This document shows, in pieces, positions 2,122-58,054 of a stretch of 64,000 nucleotides of DNA. The stretch lies in NCBI RefSeq assembly GCF_003019035.1, contig NZ_CP027447.1; one strand, 5' to 3'. The notes under the pieces were generated by a model. The model was given only the letters and a program-made list of their open reading frames with translations. It searched no databases and had not been told where the DNA came from. The translations under genes were made by a program, and so were the position numbers. Positions within the stretch are counted from its first letter, which is position 1, and the number at the start of each line of letters is the position of its first letter. The stretch comes from Escherichia coli. GTDB taxonomy: Bacteria > Pseudomonadota > Gammaproteobacteria > Enterobacterales > Enterobacteriaceae.

Positions 2122-4554
2122 TTACAGCATATGTTCAGTACGGGCGATGATATCGTCCTGAGCGTCTGGAGAGAGCGCGGTGAAGAAGGCGGAATAGCCC
2201 GCGACACGCACTACCAGATCGCGGTACTGATCCGGATGTTTTTTCGCTTCCAGCAGCGTTTCGCGGGAAACGATGTTGTACTGAATATGCCAGCCTTTAT
2301 GCACTTCAAAGAAGGTGCGTAGCAGGATCATCAGTTTCTGCTTGTCAGATTCGTTCTCCAGCGTTGCCGGATTCAGTTTCTGGTTGAGCAACACGCCGCC
2401 GAGAATCGCGGCCGTAGGCAGTTTACCCACCGAGCCAATGACCGCAGTAGGGCCAAGATGATCAGTACCGGAGGCCGGACTAGCGCCTTCTGCCAGCGGG
2501 GTATGCGCTTTACGTCCGTCCGGCGTTGCCATCGTCTGCGCGCCAAAGGGTACGTTAGCGGAGATAGATGACGTACCCGCGTAATAATTGCCGCCAACCG
2601 GACCACGACCATAGCGCGGGTTATGGTACTGTTTTAGTTCGTCGATATAGGTCTGATAAGCGCGAGCCAGCAGCGTATCGACAGTATCATCGTCGTTGCC
2701 GTACTTAGGCGCACCGTTAATCAGCCGCTGACGCAGCTGCTCGTGAGTCAGGCCGTCGAAGTCATCCGCCAGTGCGGCAGCCAGCTGTTGCTGACCAATC
2801 GCGCCCTGTTCAAATACCAGTTTCTTCACTGCCGCCAGGCTGTTGCCGAGGTTAGCAATGCCGACCTGCAGGCCAGAAACCCAGTCATATTTCGCGCCGC
2901 CTTGCTTGATACTTTTCGCTCGCTCAATACAGTCATCCACCAGCGCCGAGCAGAGAATATCGTGTACGTTCTCTTCCAGCATGGTGTCGACGACATATTC
3001 GATTTCGATTGATTTACGCGTGTAGTAACGGATTTGCGTATCCCATGCGTCCATTACTTCATCGAAGTTGTTGAAGTTACCCGCTGACAACGCTTTTTCT
3101 TGTGGCAGGAACACTTTGCCGCTGGTGGCATCACGACCGCCTTCCAGCGCCGCCAGCATCACGCGGGCGAAGTTGATAAAGCTCATGCCGGTACAGCGAT
3201 AGCCCCATTTGCCACCGACGGCGGTTTCGATACAACCAATCGCTGCGTAGTCGTAAGCGTCCTGCGGTTCAATACCGAGTTTAATAAATTCCGGGATGAC
3301 GATTTCATCGTTGTTGAACGCCGGCATCCCGAAACCACAGCGGATCACCTGAACACAGGCATCGAGGAAATCGTTACTCATACCCGCGTGGTAGCGCACG
3401 CTGAGGTTAGGCTGAGTGGAACGCAGGCGACCGCAAGATTCGAGGATCGCATAAGAGAGTGGATTTACCGCGTCCATCGGTTGACCATCAACCAGATTTT
3501 GCCCGCCAATGGTGACGTTCTGATACAGCGGACTTCCCGCAGAGGCTTTTGAGTGTGAGCCGGAGCGGATTTTGTTCACTTCCAGCAATTTCAACCAGCA
3601 GCTATGCAGCATCTCGATGGCGTGTTCGCGATCCAGTGTCTGGTTCAGTTCAACGTCGCGGCGATAGTAAGGGTAGAGATACTGGTCCATACGACCAAAC
3701 GATACCGAGTGACCGTTAGATTCGATCTGCAAAATCAACTGGATGAAGTAACACAGTTGCAGCGCCTGCCAGAAAGTCTGCGGCGGCTGGTGGGCGATAA
3801 GATCGCAGTTTTCTGCTATCGCCAGCAGTTCATCGCGACGGCTTTCGCGGGTTTCAGTGGCTGCCATTTCACGCGCCAGGGCAGCGAAACGTTCAATGTG
3901 TTCACTGACTGCCACCAGCACGATATCAATCGCTTTCAGGAACTGCTCGCCGTGCAAATCTTCCAGCACCGTCAGGTTGATGCGCGAGCGACGTTCCGCT
4001 ACTTTCTCGCGCAGACCATCAAGACCTTTTTCCAGCAGTAGCGGGAAATTGACCGCCAGGTGCGCATCGCCGGAGGTCATATTGCCCTCCGCTTTAATGA
4101 TGCCGGTCGCCAGCAGACCTTTTTGCTCATCGGTAAACATGCCGTAGCAGCGATCCTGTACGGTCTGACCGCGCCACCACGGGCACACTTCATGCAGAAC
4201 GCGTTTGTTCTCTTCGCTCACCGCAAAACCAGCACCGGGACGATCTGCCAGATCATCAATCTCTTTTTCGATCCATGAGACGGTATATTCCGGGAAGATC
4301 GGCGCGGCGCGAACTTCGCTTGCCTGGTTGCCAATGATCAATTCATCGTGCTTGATCCAGATGGTGCGATTCGCCAGGTGATGCGCCAGTGCCAGCGCGC
4401 GACGTACCGGGATCGGCTTATCGAGATGTTGTTGATACATCCCGGTATAGTGCTGCGCGCGCTCGGTACAAACCGGCGGTTTCACAATATGCACCAGCGC
4501 ATTTTTGTGCGCTTTAATGCGGTCGCTGAGCGTGTCCAGTTTCAGTGTGGTCAT
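2122..4554 (-). CDS. ybiW: Glycyl-radical enzyme, pyruvate formate-lyase-like
   Basis: 810-aa ORF; PFL-family length and C-terminal glycyl-radical region (RVAGYSAFF); matches recalled E. coli YbiW. Confidence 0.92.
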   Translation of the reverse strand: MTTLKLDTLSDRIKAHKNALVHIVKPPVCTERAQHYTGMYQQHLDKPIPVRRALALAHHLANRTIWIKHDELIIGNQASEVRAAPIFPEYTVSWIEKEIDDLADRPGAGFAVSEENKRVLHEVCPWWRGQTVQDRCYGMFTDEQKGLLATGIIKAEGNMTSGDAHLAVNFPLLLEKGLDGLREKVAERRSRINLTVLEDLHGEQFLKAIDIVLVAVSEHIERFAALAREMAATETRESRRDELLAIAENCDLIAHQPPQTFWQALQLCYFIQLILQIESNGHSVSFGRMDQYLYPYYRRDVELNQTLDREHAIEMLHSCWLKLLEVNKIRSGSHSKASAGSPLYQNVTIGGQNLVDGQPMDAVNPLSYAILESCGRLRSTQPNLSVRYHAGMSNDFLDACVQVIRCGFGMPAFNNDEIVIPEFIKLGIEPQDAYDYAAIGCIETAVGGKWGYRCTGMSFINFARVMLAALEGGRDATSGKVFLPQEKALSAGNFNNFDEVMDAWDTQIRYYTRKSIEIEYVVDTMLEENVHDILCSALVDDCIERAKSIKQGGAKYDWVSGLQVGIANLGNSLAAVKKLVFEQGAIGQQQLAAALADDFDGLTHEQLRQRLINGAPKYGNDDDTVDTLLARAYQTYIDELKQYHNPRYGRGPVGGNYYAGTSSISANVPFGAQTMATPDGRKAHTPLAEGASPASGTDHLGPTAVIGSVGKLPTAAILGGVLLNQKLNPATLENESDKQKLMILLRTFFEVHKGWHIQYNIVSRETLLEAKKHPDQYRDLVVRVAGYSAFFTALSPDAQDDIIARTEHML

Positions 4555-4559
4555 GGTTG

Positions 4560-5459
4560 TTATCCTCGTAAGGTCGCGGTTAACCCTTTCTGGCAGGCAT
4601 ACTGCTGGGCAAAGTCGAGCAGTTCTGGCGCATCAAGCGGTTTTTCCGGGGCGTCATAGGGCAGATTAAGTAAGTGATATTTGTTGATGCCTAGCGTGTG
4701 GTAGGGCAGGAAATGGATTTCGCCAACGTGCAGCTCGTCGGCGGCAAAATCGGTAATGGCTTTTACAGCGGTTTCGTCGGCATTAAAGCCCTGAATCAGC
4801 GGTACGCGGATGATGATTTTTTTCCCCGCCGCAGCGAGTTTTTTCAGATTATCCAGCACCCTGGCGGCGTTACCGTCGGTCCACTGTTTAAACGGCGCGT
4901 CGGCGACGTGTTTTAAATCGGCAAGAAACAGATCGATATAGGGCAGAGAAGGGGAGATATATTTCCACGGCACATGCAGACAGGTTTCTACCGCAGTATG
5001 AATGCCGGCCTCGTGGCTGGCTTGCAGTAGCGCCGTCGCCATTTCCGGCTGCATAAACGGTTCACCGCCAGAAAGTGTTAAGCCGCCGCCGCTGCGATCG
5101 TAAAACGGTTTATCGCGCAAAACGGTTGCCATGATCTCCTCAACGCTTTTCACTTCACCACACACGGTTAACGCCTGTGTCGGGCAGCAGTCGGTTAGCG
5201 CCGTCAGATGCTCCGGGGTTAACTTTTCCCGATGAATAAGCAAGCCATTCAGCGCGCGCTCAATCACGTCCGGCGCGGCCTTAGCGCACAGCTCGCAGCC
5301 TTCCAGACACAGTCGTGCGTCATACAACAGATCCTGCGTGCGGGCGCGGCTTTCCGGGTTCTGACACCAGCGGCAGCCCAGCGAACAGCCTTTAAGAAAT
5401 ACGACCGTGCGGATACCGGGGCCATCATGGGTCGAGTAGCGCTGAATATTGAAAATCAT
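4560..5459 (-). CDS. ybiY: Glycyl-radical enzyme activating protein (radical SAM)
   Basis: 299-aa ORF with cysteine clusters ([19 protein letters not shown]) typical of PFL activases; sits immediately upstream of ybiW on the same strand. Confidence 0.9.
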
Positions 5460-5493
5460 AGTTGCCTCTCCGTTTCGTTCAAATATTAAAATA

Positions 5494-5507
5494 CTTTCGA
5501 ATGAAAG
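5494..5507. promoter_or_regulatory. Palindromic motif CTTTCGAATGAAAG (copy 3 of 3) in the divergent ybiY / fsaA promoter region
   Basis: Sequence ctttcgaatgaaag read directly; 35 bp upstream of the ybiY ATG and 83 bp upstream of the fsaA ATG. Confidence 0.4.
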
Positions 5508-5589
5508 TTAGATTGATGTGCGTCAACTGTTCAGAGAGTTTTCCCGTGATAGTCTACATTCAGACAAAAAGTACATTTTGAGGATGGTT

Positions 5590-6252
5590 ATGGAACTGTA
5601 TCTGGATACTTCAGACGTTGTTGCGGTGAAGGCGCTGTCACGTATTTTTCCGCTGGCGGGTGTGACCACTAACCCAAGCATTATCGCCGCGGGTAAAAAA
5701 CCGCTGGAGGTTGTGCTTCCGCAACTTCACGAGGCGATGGGCGGTCAGGGGCGTCTGTTTGCCCAGGTAATGGCTACCACTGCCGAAGGGATGGTGAATG
5801 ACGCGCTTAAGCTGCGTTCTATTATTGCGGATATCGTGGTGAAAGTTCCGGTGACCGCCGAGGGGCTGGCAGCGATTAAGATGTTAAAAGCGGAAGGGAT
5901 TCCGACGCTGGGAACCGCGGTATATGGCGCGGCACAAGGGTTGATGTCGGCGCTGGCAGGTGCAGAATATGTTGCGCCTTACGTTAATCGTATTGATGCT
6001 CAGGGCGGTAGCGGTATTCAGACTGTGACCGACTTACACCAGTTATTGAAAATGCATGCGCCGCAGGCGAAAGTGCTGGCAGCGAGTTTCAAAACCCCGC
6101 GTCAGGCGCTGGACTGCTTACTGGCAGGATGTGAATCAATTACTCTGCCACTGGATGTGGCACAACAGATGATTAGCTATCCGGCGGTTGATGCCGCTGT
6201 GGCGAAGTTTGAGCAGGACTGGCAGGGAGCGTTTGGCAGAACGTCGATTTAA
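5590..6252 (+). CDS. fsaA: Fructose-6-phosphate aldolase 1
   Basis: Start chosen at MELYLDTSD (ATG 5590) to give 220 aa; transaldolase-like fold; matches recalled FsaA. Confidence 0.92.
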
Positions 6253-35460: not shown

Positions 35461-36314
35461 GCACCATCCTGAAATGGGCGGGAAATAAAACTGCCATAAT
35501 GTCCGAACTGAAAAAACATCTTCCTGCTGGCCCGCGACTGGTTGAACCTTTCGCGGGTTCCTGTGCTGTGATGATGGAGACGGATTATCCCAGCTATCTG
35601 GTTGCGGATATTAATCCTGATTTAATCAACCTCTATAAAAAGGTTGTCGCTGATTGTGAATCGTTTATATCTCGCGCCAGAGTTTTATTTGAGAACGCAA
35701 ACAGGGAGATGGATTATTACAACATAAGGCAGGAGTTTAATTACTCAACTGAAATTACTGATTTCATGAAAGCGGTATATTTCCTGTATCTCAATCGTCA
35801 CGGTTACCGTGGTTTATGTCGCTATAACAAGAGCGGGCATTTCAACATTCCCTACGGTAATTATAAAAATCCGTATTTCCCTGAAAAAGAAATTCGCGCA
35901 TTTGCAGAGAAAGCCCAGCGGGCAACGTTTATCTGCGCCAGCTTTGATGAAACGCTGGCGATGCTGCAGGTGGGGGATGTGGTGTATTGCGATCCGCCTT
36001 ATGACGGCACGTTTTCCGGTTATCACACTGACGGCTTCACTGAAGATGACCAGTATCATCTGGCATCCGTTCTTGAGCATCGGTCATCAGAAGGACATCC
36101 GGTCATTGTTTCTAACAGTGACACATCCCTGATCCGTTCGCTGTATCGCAATTTTACTCACCACTACATCAAGGCAAAACGCAGCATCGGCGTAGCAGCT
36201 GGTGAGAGTAAATCTGCAACAGAAATCATCGCTGTTTCTGGGGCACGCTGCTGGGTGGGATTTGATCCTTCGCGTGGCGTGGATAGTTCTGCTGTGTACG
36301 AGGTGCGTGTATGA
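35457..36314 (+). CDS. DNA adenine (N6) methyltransferase, Dam-like, phage-encoded orphan
   Basis: Start at [14 protein letters not shown]-binding EPFAGSCAV and catalytic DPPY motif ([10 protein letters not shown]). Confidence 0.8.
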
Positions 36315-38725
36315 GTCATGACGATATGAGCAACTCTAGCGGCTTTAACGAGGCCGCTGCATCATTTTCATGGAACGGCCCGAAAAAGGCCATTAACCCT
36401 TATCTGGACCCGGCGGAAGTTGCGCCGGAGTCTGCACTTTCAAACCTGATCACTCTGTATGCTGCCGATAACGAGCAGGAACAACTGCGCCGCGAGGCAC
36501 TGAGTGAGCAGGTCTGGGAGCGTTATTTCTTTAATGAATCCCGTGATCCTGTCCAGCGCGAAATGGAGCAGGATAAGCTCATTAGCCGGGCAAAGCTGGC
36601 GCATGAGCAGCAGCGTTTTAATCCAGACATGGTCATTCTGGCTGACGTCAACGCCCAGCCTTCCCATATCAGCAAGCCGCTGATGCAACGTATTGAATAC
36701 TTCAGCAGCCTGGGCAGGCCAAAGGCTTATTCCCGCTATTTGCGTGAGACGATTAAGCCATGTCTGGAACGACTGGAGCATGTACGCGACAGTCAGCTAT
36801 CCACTTCTTTTCGCTTTATGGCAAGCCATGAAGGGCTGGACGGCCTGCTGATCCTGCCTGAAATGAGTCAGGATCAGGTGAAACGCCTGTCTACCCTTGT
36901 CGCTGCGCATATGAGCATGTGTCTTGATGCCGCTTGTGGTGATTTGTACGCCACCGATGATGTTAAGCCAGAAGAAATCCGCAAGACATGGGAAAAGGTG
37001 GCAGCGGAAACCCTACGTTTGGATGTCATCCCGCCTGCGTTTGAGCAACTCCGTCGGAAAAGAAACCGCCGTAAACCAGTGCCCTATGAACTCATTCCGG
37101 GCTCGCTGGCGCGTATGCTGTGCGCCGACTGGTGGTATCGGAAATTGTGGAAGATGCGTTGCGAATGGCGGGAAGAGCAGTTGCGTGCTGTCTGCCTGGT
37201 CAGCAAAAAAGCATCTCCCTATGTCAGCTATGAAGCTGTGATGCATAAACGTGAGCAGCGCCGTAAGTCGCTGGAGTTTTTCCGTTCTCATGAACTGGTG
37301 AACGAAGACGGAGACGCGCTGGATATGGAAGATGTGGTAAACGCCAGCTGCAGCAACCCGGCGCATCGCCGCAATGAGATGATGGCCTGTGTTAAAGGTC
37401 TGGAGCTTATCGCGGAAATGCGCGGTGACTGCGCCGTTTTCTACACCATTACCTGTCCGTCACGTTTCCATTCCACGCTCAATAACGGCAGACCCAACCC
37501 GACCTGGAAAAACGCGACGGTAAGACAAAGCAGCGATTATCTGGTCGGTATGTTTGCTGCATTTCGTAAGGCGATGCACAAAGCCGGGTTGCGCTGGTAT
37601 GGCGTGCGGGTGGCTGAGCCGCATCACGACGGCACAGTTCACTGGCACCTGTTGTGTTTCATGCGCAAAAAAGACCGCCGCGCCATTACTGCATTGTTGC
37701 GTAAGTTTGCTATCCGTGAAGACCGCGAGGAGCTGGGCAATAACACGGGGCCGCGCTTTAAGTCTGAGTTGATTAACCCGCGCAAAGGTACGCCAACAAG
37801 CTACATCGCGAAATACATCAGTAAGAACATTGACGGGCGTGGTCTGGCTGGCGAGATCAGCAAGGAAACGGGGAAATCCCTGCGTGATAATGCTGAATAC
37901 GTTAATGCCTGGGCGTCTCTGCATCGTGTTCAGCAATTCCGCTTCTTTGGCATTCCGGGGCGTCAGGCTTACCGCGAACTGCGATTGCTGGCTGGTCAGG
38001 CGGCAAGGCAACAGGGGGACAAAAAAGCAGGTGCGCCGGTACTGGATAACCCGCGCCTTGATGCAATCCTGGCTGCTGCTGATGCTGGTTGTTTTGCCAC
38101 CTACATCATGAAGCAGGGCGGCGTACTGGTTCCCCGCAAATATCACCTGATCAGAACCGCTTATGAAATCAACGAAGAGCCGACCGCCTATGGCGATCAC
38201 GGCATTCGTATTTATGGCATCTGGTCACCCATTGCAGAGGGCAAGATCTGCACTCATGCAGTGAAGTGGAAAATGGTTCGTAAGGCCGTTGACGTTCAGG
38301 AGGCGGCAGCCGACCAGGGCGCTTGCGCCCCTTGGACTCGTGGCAATAACTGTCCCCTTGCTGAAAATTTGAACCAACAAGGGAAAGACAAATCAGCTGA
38401 TGGGGACTCCAGAACGGATATTACCCGTATGAATGACAAGGAGTTGCACGATTACCTGCACAGTATGAGCAAAAAAGAGCGCCGGGAACTGGCTGCAAGG
38501 TTACGCCAGGTGAAACCGAAACGGCGTAAAGACTACAAACAGCGAATTACAGACCATCAGCGACAGCAGCTCGTCTATGAACTGAAGTCCAGGGGATTTG
38601 ATGGCAGCGAGAAAGAAGTCGATTTGCTCCTTCGCGGCGGCAGTATTCCGTCAGGAGCAGGCCTGCGTATCTTCTATCGGAACCAACGTCTGAAGGAAGA
38701 TGATAAGTGGCGGAACCTGTATTAA
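36311..38725 (+). CDS. Replication initiation endonuclease (P2 gpA-like, HUH rolling-circle family)
   Basis: 804-aa ORF; HUH motif (HWHLLCF) and catalytic tyrosine pair (SYIAKYISK). Confidence 0.88.
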
Positions 38726-38794
38726 TTACGCGGGTTAACAATTCGTGCTCTTAATAATACCAGGCATATCAGGCCGATGAACGTAAAAAAACGT

Positions 38795-38837
38795 TTTACA
38801 TCAGTAAGATTATTATATACTGTAAATATAAACAGTG
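38795..38837 (+). promoter_or_regulatory. SOS promoter: -35 TTTACA, 17-bp spacer, -10 TACTGT overlapping a LexA box (taCTGTaaatataaACAGtg, 38818..38837)
   Basis: CTGT-N8-ACAG with an AT-rich spacer read directly; 40 bp upstream of the ATG at 38878. Confidence 0.7.
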
Positions 38838-38877
38838 GTTATGTATACAGTATTGTTTTGGTGTCATAGGAGGAAAG

Positions 38878-39066
38878 ATGCAGGACTATTTTTTGGAGTC
38901 TTTGAAGCTCCAGCGCATTGATTTTTTTCTTAAGCTTGTAGCGGCTAGTGAGTGTAGTGATGAAGAGAAGGGGCTGGCTCTGCAGTGGGTTTCTGAATTG
39001 ACTGATGAACTCATGGCAAAAATCAGAAGCCACGAATACAACCGCTCAATGGATGTCATCAGCTGA
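38878..39066 (+). CDS. SOS-regulated small protein (possible antirepressor, Tum-like by position)
   Basis: 62-aa ORF with strong RBS (AGGAGG); first gene downstream of the LexA box. Confidence 0.5.
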   Translation: MQDYFLESLKLQRIDFFLKLVAASECSDEEKGLALQWVSELTDELMAKIRSHEYNRSMDVIS

Positions 39067-39076
39067 GGTGACTTTT

Positions 39077-39310
39077 ATGCGCATTGAAATAATGATCGAT
39101 AAAGAGCAGAAGATTAGCCAGTCTACCCTGGACGCCCTTGAATCCGAGCTTTACCGCAATCTGCGCCCCCTGTATCCCAAAACGGTAATTCGCATTCGCA
39201 AAGGTAGCTCTAACGGTGTGGAACTAACCGGACTGCAACTGGATGAAGAAAGAAAACAAGTGATGAATATTATGCAGAAGGTGTGGGAGGACGACAGCTG
39301 GCTGCATTAA
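39077..39310 (+). CDS. DinI-family protein
   Basis: Start at MRIEIMIDKEQK (RBS GAGGTGA); 77 aa; resembles recalled DinI including the acidic C-terminus (WEDDSWLH). Confidence 0.75.
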   Translation: MRIEIMIDKEQKISQSTLDALESELYRNLRPLYPKTVIRIRKGSSNGVELTGLQLDEERKQVMNIMQKVWEDDSWLH

Positions 39311-39502
39311 GAAACGTTGCCCCCAGGAGGATTCATTCTGATGGGGGCTAGTTTGGGCAATGAGTGAAATAAGGCGTAAGGTGGGCGGTTATTTTGATAA
39401 GTGATCGTCCGCTTTGTGTCAGAAGCAGAAGTGGGAGTGTCTGAGACTCTCTAAAAGTTGATGATTCACTTACAAAACCATTTTCCTGATGGATGCTTAC
39501 AC

Positions 39503-39838
39503 TTACGAATGATCATTCTGTTTAGTCTTCATGAGAAAATCCCGAATCTTTGCCAAGTTTGAATTTTCGGGGATTGAATCCATGTACGGATCACGCTCAA
39601 ACACTAATTGCTCAGATTCAACGAAAGCCTGCCACTCTACTGGGTCTAGCTCAAATCCCATTGCTGTCATATCACTTTCATCTTCCCCCTCGATCCAGTG
39701 GACTAAATAAAACAATTCATCATCAGGAGAATCATCCTCACCATCAACAATATCAACATCGGTTACAGTGATACGTAGGGTGGGATCGATTTTTGAGACA
39801 TAAATTCCTAACTGTGGTATAGGGGGAATATTGTTCAT
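39503..39838 (-). CDS. Highly acidic small protein of unknown function
   Basis: 111-aa ORF with GGAG RBS; very Asp/Glu-rich (e.g. DVDIVDGEDDSPDDELFY, EGEDESD). Confidence 0.55.
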   Translation of the reverse strand: MNNIPPIPQLGIYVSKIDPTLRITVTDVDIVDGEDDSPDDELFYLVHWIEGEDESDMTAMGFELDPVEWQAFVESEQLVFERDPYMDSIPENSNLAKIRDFLMKTKQNDHS

Positions 39839-40303
39839 GGAAACTCCTTTTATTGGTGTTTGCTATTTGAATAAAAATACGCCAAACAGAGTGTTAACTG
39901 TGAATATGGAAAGAATCGTTGTAAGTACCCCGCTTAGGTGTCCCATTCTATTTTAGAGGTTCTCGTGCATATGGATTATGTTATCTGAAAGTTAACTTCC
40001 GCTTCCCGTTCACAGCGAACATTCATCTTTGTAAACCCGTATGATCCGTTTTTCAAGTGGCCATTCAGATACGGATTTTCACTTCCTTGACAGTGCATGA
40101 CTATGCTGCATGAAATCGCATGATCGATTGAGGATCGTCTTTGCTCAGATCCGCCAGAACTGGCGGGCTTTTGCTCATGTCATGCATGTGCATGAAAACC
40201 ACTGCATAAAGCGGGCAGGCGTGGCGGGGATACGAGCGCGCGCTTATTACTTTGATAGTACTCGGGTTATAATATGGATGACTATCTATCTCGGAGAATG
40301 TGC

Positions 40304-41956
40304 ATGTCATTGGACTATATTAAAGAACAGTTGTCAGACTTTATTTCATCTGCAGAACCTGAGGTAATGGCTATTCAGGGTGAATGGGGGATTGGGAAAA
40401 CCTATACTTGGAATACTTTCTTAAAGGAAAATAAAAATAAGATTGCATTTAATAGATATAGTTACGTCTCTCTTTTTGGTGTTAATTCATTGGACGCATT
40501 AAAATATTCCATCTTTGAAAATACAATTACAAAAGATTTTATTGGAAATAAACCTAATTTAAAAACAGCAACACAAAATACAAAGGGACTTCTTGAATCC
40601 TGCACTAGAAAGACCGCTCGTTTGTTAAAAGAAACACCTGTTGTGAAAAATTTCGCTACGACACTTGAGTCAATGTCATTTATGTCAATTACTAATGTTA
40701 TTGTAGTCATAGATGACTTAGAAAGACGTGGTAAAAATTTAGAAGTGAAAGATGTCTTAGGGTTGGTTTCTTTATTGAAAGAACAAAAAAATTGTAAGGT
40801 GGTTCTTTTACTTAATAATGGGACAAGTGGTATGGATGATTACTCCACTTATAAAGAAAAGGTTATTGATAGAGAGATTACCTATAACCCTACGCCAGAA
40901 GAATGTGCAGCTATAGCATATAAAAATAATTCTGATGTTCATAAATTATTAAGCAAATACTCCATTTCTCTGGGTATTAAAAATATTCGGATACTGAAAA
41001 AAATAGAGCGGTTTTTGCTAGCCTTGTTACCTGCTATTAACGTTAATTTTGATAAAATTGCAAATGAAGTCGCACGCTCCTTAACTTTGTATTGTTGGAG
41101 TCATTACGCATTTACTCCAGATGGAGATGTACCATCATTGGAATATATTAGAAATATGAGAAATATCTATATGCGTGATGAAAAAGAGGATGGAAAAGGA
41201 AAAAAATGGCTTAATACTTTGCTTATATATGGTTATAAAAAAACAAACGAACTTGATGAAGTCCTTATAGACATGGTTAAGCATGGATATATTGATATGA
41301 ACAATTTTCAAAGGCAAGTAAGTCTAAGAAATGATGAACTTATCCGTGATAGTAAGCGAGGTTCACTGTTTGAAGCATGGAAGCTTTTCTATAATTCATT
41401 TGAAGATAACCGAAATCAGGTTGTTGATAATCTATATCAAGCGGTGGTTGGTGGGATAGAGTATGTAACTCCAAGTGACTTGGATAGTGTTGTCGGACTG
41501 TATAGAGATTTAGATGAAAATATTAAAGCAAGTGAATTAATAAGTAAATTTATTAATTACGGCAATGATGCTCTTAAGGAATATGTCCAATCTATTTACA
41601 TGAATGTTCATCCTATAAAAGATGCTGAGTTAAAGTCAAAAATCCAAGATTATTCTATTACTTTAAATCTGGATGGTTCTATAAAGGATGTTCTAATAAA
41701 ATTATCAAGTCAGAATGGTTGGTCTGATAGGCACGAGGAAATATTGGATGCTGCCTCAGAGGATGACTACTATGATTTATTTAAAAAAGTCATTCTTGAA
41801 GGTGGTGATTCAATAATAGCCACTGCTCTTAAGTTTGGTGGGTATAGCAATGGTTCAGATAGAATGAAACGCATCGGAGAAAAAGCGAGAAATGCTTTGA
41901 TAAGAATTGGAAATGAGTCGAAGATTAATAAAATACGTGTTAGACGGTATTTGTAA
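40304..41956 (+). CDS. KAP-family P-loop NTPase (alternative start at 40274)
   Basis: Walker A of KAP type (GEWGIGKTY) and Walker B (VIVVIDDLERRG); AT-rich codon usage unlike the flanking phage genes; lies at the P2 old/tin position between A and Q. Confidence 0.75.
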   Translation: MSLDYIKEQLSDFISSAEPEVMAIQGEWGIGKTYTWNTFLKENKNKIAFNRYSYVSLFGVNSLDALKYSIFENTITKDFIGNKPNLKTATQNTKGLLESCTRKTARLLKETPVVKNFATTLESMSFMSITNVIVVIDDLERRGKNLEVKDVLGLVSLLKEQKNCKVVLLLNNGTSGMDDYSTYKEKVIDREITYNPTPEECAAIAYKNNSDVHKLLSKYSISLGIKNIRILKKIERFLLALLPAINVNFDKIANEVARSLTLYCWSHYAFTPDGDVPSLEYIRNMRNIYMRDEKEDGKGKKWLNTLLIYGYKKTNELDEVLIDMVKHGYIDMNNFQRQVSLRNDELIRDSKRGSLFEAWKLFYNSFEDNRNQVVDNLYQAVVGGIEYVTPSDLDSVVGLYRDLDENIKASELISKFINYGNDALKEYVQSIYMNVHPIKDAELKSKIQDYSITLNLDGSIKDVLIKLSSQNGWSDRHEEILDAASEDDYYDLFKKVILEGGDSIIATALKFGGYSNGSDRMKRIGEKARNALIRIGNESKINKIRVRRYL

Positions 41957-41959
41957 TTT

Positions 41960-41983
41960 GGGAGGGGGATTTTCATCCCCCCC
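41960..41983. terminator. GC-rich hairpin between convergent KAP gene and portal gene Q
   Basis: gggagggggat-tttc-atccccccc read directly. Confidence 0.5.
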
Positions 41984-41994
41984 ACACATTTTAT

Positions 41995-43026
41995 CTAATT
42001 CAATGAATAATCTTTGAAGGCTATTATTTTTTTCTTTAGCCAAATATTAACTTCTACAAGTCTTTTTTGTAAAGGAATTAACTCATTTCGCACAAAAACG
42101 CAACCGGCTTTCTCTATATCCCCAAATCCCCCAACATTATTAGGCATTATCCCCATCATTTGTGGCGGTACACGGTGCGCAGCCATCATGTCATCGCGGC
42201 TGACATTTTTGATATTCAGAAACTCATCCTTCGCCGCGACTTCTGACAGAGGAATGATCTGAAGGCCGTCCTTTTTGCCGTTAGGCGAGTACATAAACAG
42301 GTTGCGGAAGTTGCCTGGACCTTTGGCGCTTTTCATCGCGTTGCGGAGATTGTTCACATCCTCCTGATTCTGCGCGGCGTCGGTCATGTACATGATGAAG
42401 CCTGCATGGCTGCCGTTGATGTAATACTTACGGCGGAACAGCGTGGCAGACTCGTTGAGCAGGGCGGATGGAATGGCAGAAAGATAGCCTGGCAGGCCGT
42501 AGATCTCCTGGTTGATGTCCGGTTCCATCAGATGAAAAATGCTGCCTTTCGTGAACTGATACGGCTGGGTTGTCATACCGTATTGCACAAACCAGTAGGT
42601 ATCCAGGTCTAACCCACGTCGGGTGTATTTTGCCAGCGCAGGCTCAAGGGCGATAACTTCACCGAATCGGTTCGTGCGTTTCTCCAGGTAGGCGTTACCA
42701 AATACCAGATAGTCCTGCACAAAACGCGAAAAAGCCTGTTGGCTGAGCAGCGGATGAGGGATATAGGTACTGGTCAGAATGTTGCACTTTACTGCAATCG
42801 GGGAACTGTGATGCACGGCAGCGCGGAAGGTGCGTGCCAGTCCGTCAAAACTTACGGGTGGCTCATACCAGCGATCCGTCTGTACGCATTCCACATAGTC
42901 CAGCAGTTCGCGGCGGTCCAGTACAGGAATGGGATCACCAAAGCTGAAAGCTTCGGCTGAAATTTGATTTTTATGCTGACTCTGTTTCGTCGTCGCAGCG
43001 CGGTTTTTCTTACTCTTTCCCATCAA
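41995..43026 (-). CDS. Portal protein (P2 gpQ-like)
   Basis: 343-aa ORF adjacent to and co-oriented with the large terminase gene, as in P2. Confidence 0.85.
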   Translation of the reverse strand: MMGKSKKNRAATTKQSQHKNQISAEAFSFGDPIPVLDRRELLDYVECVQTDRWYEPPVSFDGLARTFRAAVHHSSPIAVKCNILTSTYIPHPLLSQQAFSRFVQDYLVFGNAYLEKRTNRFGEVIALEPALAKYTRRGLDLDTYWFVQYGMTTQPYQFTKGSIFHLMEPDINQEIYGLPGYLSAIPSALLNESATLFRRKYYINGSHAGFIMYMTDAAQNQEDVNNLRNAMKSAKGPGNFRNLFMYSPNGKKDGLQIIPLSEVAAKDEFLNIKNVSRDDMMAAHRVPPQMMGIMPNNVGGFGDIEKAGCVFVRNELIPLQKRLVEVNIWLKKKIIAFKDYSLN

Positions 43027-57016: not shown

Positions 57017-58054
57017 TTATATTTGCCTACCTCCTAATAAAATGTGTGAGGTGTATTTGTTGGTTTTCAATAACCTTGCTACAATTATACAGGTGGTTAC
57101 AATAAGGAAAACAAATGAAGGGGTTATGATGAGGTTATATATGAGTGGATTTTCGCATAGGTTATTAATGTTCACGTATGCCTCTATTCTGTGAAAAATA
57201 AACGACGAGATTATATAGATGGGAAAGGTGTAAGTACCGACAAAGGATGTGGCTCGTATAAATAAATTATTTTTCGTTGATAAAAATGTATAAGCATATA
57301 TAAGCGATATGCTTCCGGCGAAGCCAATGAAGTAGCGAAATATAATAATGAATGATTGATGCCAGAAATCAACATTCTCATATGTCATTTTAGATATGTA
57401 AATATAATACTCTCTATTCCATAGGAGAAGCATACCAATCCATGTTAATACGGCTAACACACCAATTTTGTGCCTATTTCTAGAGGCAAAATCTAAAATG
57501 CGATGGGCGGATATACCAGCGATAAAATAAGGGGCCATAAATTTAATTTTGTCCATATTCCAATCATCTCCATATGCAAGGGATATACTAAATATCAGTA
57601 AATAAAGCACCACAGAATATTGTTTGCTTATTGAGTGACAAATAGTATAAACAATAGATACTGCAAAGAGTGCAGAAAGGAACCAGAAGGCGTAGATGGC
57701 TCCATATCTAATATTTATTAAATTTATATCTCTTCCCACAAAAATGGATTCAGCAATGAACCATGCAATGGATGGGATTATTAACTGCATGAATTTTCTT
57801 TTGATAATTGATGATGGTTTTCTCTTGAGAGAAAAATAGAAAAGATAGCCGCTAAGCAGCATAAAAAATGGCATGTGGAAGCTGTAAATGGTAATAAATA
57901 ATGGGTTGTCAAAAAAATTGAAACTATCTTTTTTTACAAACTGAATTGAATGGCCCCACACGACAAAAATTATAGCTAATCCTTTCATTGAGTCTATAAT
58001 GGAATTTCGAGTGCTGGGTGTCTCTGTTATAATAAGATGTGGTTCGTTTTTCAT
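57017..58054 (-). CDS. Membrane acyltransferase (acyltransferase-3 family; candidate LPS O-acetyltransferase)
   Basis: 345-aa polytopic ORF; N-terminal RNSIIDSMKGLAIIFVVWGHS typical of OafA/Oac-type acyltransferases; AT-rich; at the P2 Z/fun position. Confidence 0.75.
   Translation of the reverse strand: MKNEPHLIITETPSTRNSIIDSMKGLAIIFVVWGHSIQFVKKDSFNFFDNPLFITIYSFHMPFFMLLSGYLFYFSLKRKPSSIIKRKFMQLIIPSIAWFIAESIFVGRDINLINIRYGAIYAFWFLSALFAVSIVYTICHSISKQYSVVLYLLIFSISLAYGDDWNMDKIKFMAPYFIAGISAHRILDFASRNRHKIGVLAVLTWIGMLLLWNREYYIYISKMTYENVDFWHQSFIIIFRYFIGFAGSISLIYAYTFLSTKNNLFIRATSFVGTYTFPIYIISSFIFHRIEAYVNINNLCENPLIYNLIITPSFVFLIVTTCIIVARLLKTNKYTSHILLGGRQI

Follow-up and report, generated by a model that had tools for sequence, protein, structure and literature searches.

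What does a single AT-rich gene do in a prophage, when it lies between the replication gene A and the portal gene Q? We addressed this question for a gene encoding a P-loop nucleoside triphosphatase (NTPase) of the KAP type, found in a P2/186-like prophage of Escherichia coli (contig NZ_CP027447.1, assembly GCF_003019035.1). The window, meaning the whole stretch of DNA that was analyzed, has 64,000 nucleotides (nt), and all coordinates are window positions. Residue numbers refer to the protein of 550 amino acids (aa) starting at ATG 40304, unless the 560-aa open reading frame (ORF) is stated. An earlier sequence-only reading had proposed the gene as a candidate single-gene anti-phage system, located where P2 carries its old and tin genes.

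We consider it somewhat probable (roughly 55–60%) that this is a defense or exclusion gene. As a self-contained, horizontally exchanged cassette for lysogenic conversion, it would guard the lysogen, and with it the prophage, against other phages. The protein is most likely a soluble, ATP/NTP-driven switch, made of an AAA+/KAP NTPase, a lid and a C-terminal alpha-solenoid. Support comes from its position in the gpA-gpQ hotspot of P2-like phages, several systems of which have been confirmed by experiment (PMC9122126; 10.1101/2022.05.12.491691), and from its cassette behavior, with alleles swapped in the slot, a frequency of ~1% and AT-richness. The gene is also self-sufficient, having no conserved neighbor in prophage, islet or singleton contexts. 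Purifying selection and the invariant residues speak for a functional protein. Its NTPase module is akin to the candidate system PDC-S49, and KAP proteins have defensive precedents, in the fusions that defend Enterococcus faecalis and in PifA, which excludes T7. With respect to the sequence-only reading, the observation was real except for the upstream leader and the exact side of cos, and the interpretation is plausible, if unproven.

Gene, expression signals and insertion site

The gene corresponds to an ORF at 40274..41956 (+), which in the six-frame ORF list has 560 aa from its longest start. In homologous loci the RefSeq start is the ATG equivalent to 40304, giving a coding sequence at 40304..41956 (+) for a soluble protein of 550 aa and ~63 kDa. 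Both the ORF limits and the 550 aa of the sequence-only reading are therefore right, each with its own start codon. A Shine-Dalgarno motif, GGAG at 40293–40296, serves ATG 40304. When reading the sequence we found a perfect −10 box (TATAAT, 40268–40273) with a weak −35 box. Because this TATAAT directly adjoins the upstream ATG 40274, the latter is probably untranscribed and absent from the mRNA. Transcription is predicted to begin at ~40280. The consensus promoter scan did not list the promoter at 40268–40273, and its function is suggested by the letters themselves. The G + C content of the gene was 0.32 (0.25 at third codon positions), versus 0.49–0.56 (0.56–0.70) for the phage genes A, Q, P and N, in agreement with the AT-richness noticed before.

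The gene is located between the replication gene A (36311–38725, +) and the portal gene Q (41995–43026, −), which is followed by the terminase gene P (43023–44789, −). In the annotation, the homologous loci of E. coli are complete P2/186-like prophages, with CI, CII, Fil, Dam, a replication endonuclease, DinI, the NTPase gene, portal and terminase. Three of the E. coli loci bearing the gene had three different genes upstream, and could be aligned only from ~40091 onward.

From there, the stretch at 40092..40243 (+) is the phage cos region, which belongs to the backbone and not to the cargo, and forms the left boundary of the cassette. Positions 40092–40246 matched 88 P2-like phage records with 80–95% identity, including Fels-2, SopEPhi and phages of Klebsiella and Yersinia, and the stretch could be aligned to the right end of P2 up to the annotated cosR. 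At 40218–40236 there is a 19-nt homolog of the cohesive end, GGCGTGGCGGGGATACGAG, followed by CGCGCGC. The cohesive end of P2/P4 is GGCGAGGCGGGGAAAGCAC, followed by TGCGCGC or CGCGCGC, and the region resembles the P4-type cos sequences in Table S2A of Rousset et al. This conservation across P2-like phages, together with the alignment to cosR of P2, shows that 40092–40243 is not a private leader of the gene. The cargo starts at ~40244, 7 nt past the cohesive-end homolog, and the start codon is 68 nt away from the cohesive end. Of the “own upstream leader” that had been claimed, only the ~60 nt at 40244..40303 (+) are cargo-specific. They contain the TATAAT and GGAG motifs, and accompany the gene in two other loci (L001 and L002).

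Inside the cos region, ~50 nt before the cohesive end, we noticed a terminator-like hairpin at 40150–40167 (+), CCGCCAGAACTGGCGG followed by a T-rich tail, conserved in all three E. coli loci compared. It could end the rightward early transcription before cos, or belong to the terminase recognition site.

In the P2 annotation, tin and old lie on the right arm, between A and cosR, and the left arm up to Q has only cosL (1–19) and the terminator tQ (160–181). By this comparison of sequences, the NTPase gene sits in the cosL-Q interval, across cos from the old and tin genes of P2, yet in the same A-Q hotspot. The statement that it lies “exactly where P2 carries old and tin” has thus to be corrected, while the placement between A and Q is right.

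On the right side, the window is homologous to Q of other P2-like phages only from ~42057–42074 onward, and the G + C content rises from 0.26 (42000–42099) to 0.52 (from 42100). Therefore, the AT-rich end of Q (41995..42065, −), comprising its last 20–25 codons, travels with the cassette, and the right recombination boundary is at ~42057–42074. The C-terminal tail of the portal protein (41995–42074, −), which could not be aligned to other P2-like Q proteins, is thus swapped along with the cos-Q cargo.

The cargo gene and Q converge, with stop codons at 41954–41956 and 41995–41997, and a G/C hairpin at approximately 41959..41984 lies between these codons. Its folding energy was −15.9 kcal/mol on the plus strand (z −1.25) and −18.3 kcal/mol on the minus strand (z −2.34). 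The hairpin failed the plus-strand scan for terminators with a T-tail, and is weak as an intrinsic terminator on this strand. It occupies the site of the P2 terminator tQ, where other cos-Q cargos have different hairpins, and because of this position it is probably a bidirectional terminator common to the cargo gene and the convergent Q. Hence, the hairpin reported earlier is present, but it is doubtful as a terminator of the gene’s own. There was no Rfam match in 38700–42200 and no tRNA gene in the window.

Together, these data refine the anatomy of the P2 hotspot: cargo can lie to either side of cos, and the cassettes in the cos-Q slot come with a terminator of their own and with the final codons of Q.

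Distribution and exchange of the cassette

We searched 5,426 complete E. coli genomes and found the gene at 13 places in 12 of them, always on the chromosome. The P2-type terminase of the same backbone was found at 1,270 places in 1,228 genomes, so that ~1% of the P2-type E. coli prophages carry the gene. The exact protein is present on 87 E. coli contigs. Truncated copies occur in the 90% cluster, and in one E. coli genome (H12) the annotation is split.

In IMG/VR, 154 viral contigs encoded a relative, and we assessed the arrangement of the locus for the best 80 of them. About 45 of these 80 had the order cos, then the gene, then a convergent Q. In the ~45 loci the cargo alleles were 37–100% identical, and their backbone Q 60–97%. 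In one of them (L047), A and P were 97.5% and 99.7% identical to those in the window and the cargo protein only 44%, indicating allele replacement within one slot. A Salmonella allele, also with 44% identity, was found in the same cos-Q slot. Other related phages have different genes there: phage 500465-1 has a TIR-domain gene and a small ORF (4224–5526 of its locus, L022), and Fels-2 has a gene for an uncharacterized 565-aa protein, STM2723.1 (4218–5915 of its locus, L023). We examined the Fels-2 protein as a possible homolog of the NTPase and rejected it as unrelated. The cos-Q genes of these two phages are further candidate hotspot cargo.

The gene is also kept outside complete prophages. 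In Pantoea (L013–L016, 5661–11919) we found a degraded P2-like remnant with a truncated gpA, the NTPase gene, a portal gene, Ogr and part of a terminase gene, with AIPR and Shedu (SduA_C) genes on its flanks. Despite the decay of the phage, the cargo gene was intact. Other contexts were an islet with PIN7 and DUF4365 genes, the vicinity of integrase fragments, and a singleton position among housekeeping genes. An all-against-all BLASTP of the neighbors from seven contexts detected no conserved partner, in support of the earlier view of the gene as independently acquired, single-gene cargo of the A-Q hotspot.

The family ranged over Gammaproteobacteria, Alphaproteobacteria, Bacteroidota and other phyla, and was found in many phages. 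A full-length homolog with 27% identity was encoded on a ~110-kb E. coli plasmid (L021, NZ_OW849379.1, 7001–8695), between a ParA-like ATPase gene and DnaB-like helicase/primase genes. The same record has a phage tail gene. Similar copies were found in plasmid records of Klebsiella (74 records) and E. coli (21 records), as well as in the Escherichia phage CMS-2020a (109 kb). These plasmids look like phage-plasmids, of which the homolog may be a conserved component.

Protein architecture and conservation

The protein has three parts: an NTPase domain of AAA+/KAP type (residues 1–205; 40304..40918, +), a helical lid (residues 206–270; 40919..41113, +) and a family-specific, all-alpha solenoid (residues 271–550; 41114..41953, +). 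Pfam recognized the first part as KAP_NTPase (PF07693), in a modest match over residues 18–208 of the 560-aa ORF (i-Evalue 2.3e-8, score 34.1), as the sequence-only reading had supposed. Weaker Pfam matches were AAA_16, AAA_22 and NB-ARC. Conservation was followed in an alignment of 140 diverse homologs, in which KAP_NTPase was matched by 53 sequences at E ≤ 1e-3 and by 123 at E ≤ 0.1.

Both nucleotide-binding motifs named before are present and intact: the Walker A motif GEWGIGKTY (G26–T33; 40379–40402, +) and the Walker B motif VIVVIDDLERRG (V132–R141; 40697–40726, +), with the invariant D137, D138 and R141 (DDLER). The DDxxR pattern, made of the two aspartates of Walker B and the arginine that follows, is typical of KAP proteins. 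Across the 140 sequences, G26-x-W-G-x-G-K32-T33 and D137-D138-L-E-R141 were invariant or nearly so. A nearly invariant N171 in the NTPase domain is a candidate sensor-1. In the lid, which has three helices in the model, N227 and R229 (40982–40990) were invariant, and R229 is a candidate sensor-2 arginine. The complete set of invariant columns was G26, G29, G31, K32, G59, D137, D138, R141, G153, K186, N227, R229 and R545, the last one in the C-terminal tail. Apart from D318, D440 and R545, the conserved residues of the solenoid were mostly hydrophobic or structural.

The two or four transmembrane helices of typical KAP proteins were lacking: the maximum 19-residue Kyte-Doolittle mean was 1.41 and no transmembrane segment was found. 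Such helices are not strictly required of KAP members, because PifA, an accepted member, is also without them. Where membrane-anchored relatives bear their transmembrane helices, our protein has a helical insert (residues 76–127; 40529..40684, +), which separates Walker A from Walker B and is variable and basic, with an isoelectric point (pI) of 9.9. This insert is not hydrophobic. It had the highest column entropy (~3.0), the highest ratio of nonsynonymous to synonymous substitution rates (dN/dS, 0.34–0.41) and, in the structure model, the lowest confidence (predicted local distance difference test, pLDDT, 58–87).

The AlphaFold2 model, built on the family alignment, had a pLDDT of 92.6 and a predicted template modeling score of 0.82, with an alpha/beta core at residues 1–205 and a wholly helical region at 271–550. 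The modeled N-terminal part resembles oligomerizing AAA+ and STAND proteins. The modeled C-terminal part is similar to helical repeats that bind proteins, and no enzyme fold was matched. In a structure search against AFDB50, all 50 matches listed were annotated as KAP NTPase or uncharacterized, were mostly of 550–590 aa, and had no other named domain. As far as can be judged from these models, the solenoid is confined to the family of the NTPase gene and has no enzyme fold. At the sequence level, the C-terminal 345 residues had no match in PADLOC or NCBIfam, and NCBIfam had no model for the protein. PHROGs assigned it to phrog_4740, a group without assigned function (8e-144). A sequence search of solved structures gave only P-loop noise (DnaI, E 0.1). 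The C-terminus is thus free of recognizable motifs, as stated by the sequence-only reading, but it is predicted to have a defined, family-specific fold.

An exhaustive HMMER search over cluster representatives at 50% identity gave 3,874 of them at E ≤ 1e-3, of which 1,047 reached E ≤ 1e-30. With few exceptions, the 150 listed had 550–580 aa and could be aligned end to end. The dN/dS was 0.14–0.25 overall and 0.06–0.08 in the NTPase core, and the gene is under purifying selection. Positive selection was not evident in the solenoid; dN/dS values near 1 were reached only in one pair with 96% identity and very few substitutions.

Other cargo in the same prophage

On the old/tin side of cos there is an acidic 111-aa ORF (39503–39838, −; phrog_17127), with a pI of 4.05, 26 D + E against 7 K + R, and a G + C content of 0.405. 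It was absent from all 80 viral loci assessed, which carry the NTPase gene, and is therefore a separate cargo. Its charge recalls, by analogy, the DNA-mimic anti-restriction proteins.

In the late region we found a PARIS-like two-gene system (50394–52494, −). Its 418-aa ABC-type ATPase matched AriA (PADLOC, 2e-38), and its 285-aa protein matched AriB (2e-21). This locus may be the second P2 hotspot, the fun locus of Vassallo et al., in which case the prophage carries cargo at two hotspots. The late region also has a gene for a 345-aa, NolL-like acyltransferase (57017–58054, −; 7e-19). The enzyme may be an O-antigen acetylase, and hence lysogenic-conversion cargo.

Proposed function and alternatives

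How could such a protein exclude phages? The solenoid, possibly with the basic insert (76–127), would bind a protein or structure of the infecting phage. In response, the NTPase would bind or hydrolyze nucleotide and self-assemble, similar to STAND/NLR-like and PifA-type sensors. Since there is no enzymatic effector domain, the assembled or activated NTPase would itself be the effector, sequestering or dismantling the phage target. Alternatively, a runaway NTP turnover would collapse the energy or envelope function of the cell, in a PifA/Tmn-like abortive response. We put forward this combination of sensing by solenoid or insert, nucleotide-dependent assembly and an NTPase acting as effector only tentatively. 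It is an even more speculative, and on balance unlikely, thought that the whole family represents widespread “effector-less” immune NTPases. In these, the solenoid would capture a phage protein and the AAA+/KAP motor alone would stop the infection. It would use ATP to sequester or take apart a phage complex, or burn NTP once triggered, with no need for nuclease, pore or NADase chemistry. If true, the conserved place of the gene immediately after cos in many Peduoviridae would mark an old, allele-swapping exclusion locus.

Several points weigh against a defensive role. Five of the eight additional P2-hotspot systems cloned by Rousset et al. gave no protection, and about a quarter of the P2 hotspots carry partition genes (PMC9122126); thus, residence in the hotspot is not a proof of defense. 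The protein has no recognizable effector domain, and the way in which it would stop an infection is conjecture. Many homologs are singletons among housekeeping genes, without defense neighbors, and the ~27% homologs on the ~110-kb E. coli and Klebsiella plasmids sit between ParA-like and DnaB/primase genes. The match to PDC-S49 is limited to the NTPase module, and PDC-S49 is itself a predicted candidate. The dN/dS gave no clear sign of positive selection in the putative sensor region. Finally, our literature search found no phenotype or test for this NTPase family.

Some of these points would fit a role in phage or plasmid maintenance, which is the main rival explanation. The protein would then be a replication accessory, an AAA+ ATPase similar to ORC (origin recognition complex)/Cdc6, TnsC or MuB, that assembles on DNA near cos or the origin and aids replication, partition or packaging. 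In agreement with this, the gene adjoins cos, the insert between Walker A and B is basic, the distant homologs on the plasmids and partition genes in the hotspot are as described above, and NCBIfam gave a weak orc1/cdc6 match (E 0.007), far below the cutoff. However, the likeness to ORC/Cdc6 is limited to the generic AAA+ base and lid, with 9–17% identity, and the model, having no strands after residue 193, suggests that a winged helix or other DNA-binding domain is absent. As only ~1% of the P2-type E. coli prophages carry the gene, it is not needed for the prophage life cycle, and it persists in a remnant stripped of most phage genes and as a chromosomal singleton. We therefore regard a maintenance role as improbable.

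A weapon in conflicts between mobile elements is also improbable, and a selfish or neutral passenger highly so. As a weapon, the protein would act against P4-like satellites that hijack P2 capsids and cos, or as a counter-defense against host or satellite immunity. The gene lies 68 nt from the cos cohesive end and beside the portal and terminase genes, components that are exploited by P4, and the hotspot systems act in the competition among P2 relatives and in P2-P4 dynamics (PMC9122126). The PARIS-like system in the same prophage likewise suggests that its cargo is geared to inter-element conflicts. Nevertheless, homologs are common beyond Peduoviridae and also beyond phages, in settings where a P4-type satellite would not be expected, and the libraries searched contained no known anti-defense protein of such architecture. 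Moreover, this explanation overlaps with a role in phage exclusion and does not replace it. As for a passenger, either an addiction-type or a decaying gene without benefit to phage or host, the gene is indeed rare and AT-rich, and has truncated copies and the split annotation in H12. Such a gene is difficult to reconcile with the strong purifying selection along its whole length, the catalytic motifs that are all invariant, and its maintenance while the surrounding prophage decays. Also, the family has >1,000 cluster representatives at 50% identity (E ≤ 1e-30), and almost every one of the 150 listed covers the query from end to end.

Comparison with known systems

The gpA-gpQ hotspot was defined by Rousset et al. 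(2022), who cloned eight additional systems from it, three of them active (PMC9122126), and four of the systems in the preprint of Vassallo et al. are found at the same P2 position (10.1101/2022.05.12.491691). In Table S5A of Rousset et al., the RefSeq proteins of our gene (WP_053877087 and WP_001726290) are entered as “KAP_NTPase” with varying neighbors; the tested systems are given in Tables S2A and S2B, where the protein motifs do not appear (PMC9122126). The hotspot is thus published, the exact protein is catalogued there, and KAP-type defenses have experimental precedent. Accordingly, this is no new kind of system, and novelty is limited. The sequence-only reading, although it fits the evidence from the genomic context, had overstated this point. 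In common with old, tin and the systems of Rousset et al. and Vassallo et al., the gene is located between A and Q in a small, AT-rich, variable and replaceable cassette, which adjoins cos and has its own expression signals. It differs from old and tin of P2 in being on the cosL-Q side instead of the A-cosR side.

PADLOC, searched with the whole protein at E ≤ 0.01 and with its two halves separately at E ≤ 1, assigned it to no named defense system and gave only PDC-S49 and PDC-S20, both on the NTPase module. For PDC-S49 the E value was 3.7e-25 with the whole protein and 5e-26 with the N-terminal 205 residues alone, where residues 6–199 aligned to positions 9–201 of the 624 in the profile. PDC-S49 is one of 145 predicted candidates from genes embedded in BREX, DISARM or type I restriction-modification systems (Payne et al. 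2024, preprint). Our protein shares with it the NTPase module and the status of single-gene candidate. However, the profiles have 619–629 positions and the C-terminal 345 residues match none of them, so that the likeness does not extend to the full profile. The literature search found no mention of PDC-S49 by name, and no paper linking Tiamat with KAP. The preprint of Millman et al. mentions neither Tiamat nor KAP, and KAP is also absent from two recent discovery preprints. We also considered the GAPS systems and rejected them, as they are not KAP proteins.

Closer in architecture are EF_KAP and three metagenomic KAP NTPase fusions that defend E. faecalis, as described in the RADS preprint (PMC12632615). 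A Walker B mutant of EF_KAP loses its activity, showing that the defense depends on this motif (PMC12632615). Like our protein, these fusions are single proteins with a KAP-type NTPase and a region of 300–350 residues without known domain (PMC12632615). In contrast to it, EF_KAP has two N-terminal transmembrane helices. A 612-aa protein encoded on an E. faecalis plasmid, near a serine recombinase gene, shares the NTPase module with our protein (hhalign probability 99.1%, residues 8–196), but the homology ends at ~residue 200 and the C-terminal domains are unrelated. These comparisons point to one conserved KAP-like NTPase module, joined to different C-terminal domains across lineages, which is the same arrangement as in the RADS preprint (PMC12632615).

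Two families of defense ATPases were rejected as relatives. OLD nucleases did not fit: there was no AAA_15/AAA_21, ABC ATPase or TOPRIM match, and the predicted fold is AAA+/ORC-like with an alpha-solenoid. The earlier exclusion of the OLD family thus agrees with both profile and structure comparisons. A STAND NTPase (Avs, TIR-NLR) was not supported either, in view of the lack of winged helix and separate effector, and of KAP, instead of NB-ARC or NACHT, as best Pfam match. In addition, an N-terminal effector would not fit before Walker A, which begins at residue 26.

PifA, from the F plasmid, is a KAP protein without transmembrane helices that excludes T7, with membrane depolarization and nucleotide leakage, and is triggered by T7 gp1.2 and gp10. 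The similarities to our protein are the single gene on a mobile element, the KAP-type NTPase with a GxWGxGKT Walker A, the lack of transmembrane helices and the lack of a recognizable effector. PifA is larger (741 aa), and hhalign to our family profile covered 27 columns around the P-loop, with a probability of 71%. The PADLOC model of PifA matched only the P-loop (residues 15–41, E 0.0027), and orthology was rejected; consequently, neither the PifA triggers nor its membrane phenotype can be assumed for our protein.

Tmn, of the YobI family, responds to the phage protein RIIB with ATP turnover and Mg2+ export. Similar to our candidate, it is a single-gene P-loop NTPase defense without a classical effector, which senses RIIB and acts via ATP turnover. 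In contrast, Tmn is a membrane decamer with two transmembrane helices inserted in the P-loop domain, and our protein is soluble. Membership in Tmn/YobI was rejected, as there was no Tmn model among the PADLOC matches and no transmembrane segment.

If the gene is active against phages, a large and taxonomically broad family (>1,000 clusters at 50% identity) would join the single-gene anti-phage repertoire. It would also offer a system that is tractable in E. coli, and has a confident structure model, for how KAP NTPases without a recognizable effector, PifA included, stop phages. For P-loop defenses without a classical effector, PifA and Tmn are the mechanistic precedents.

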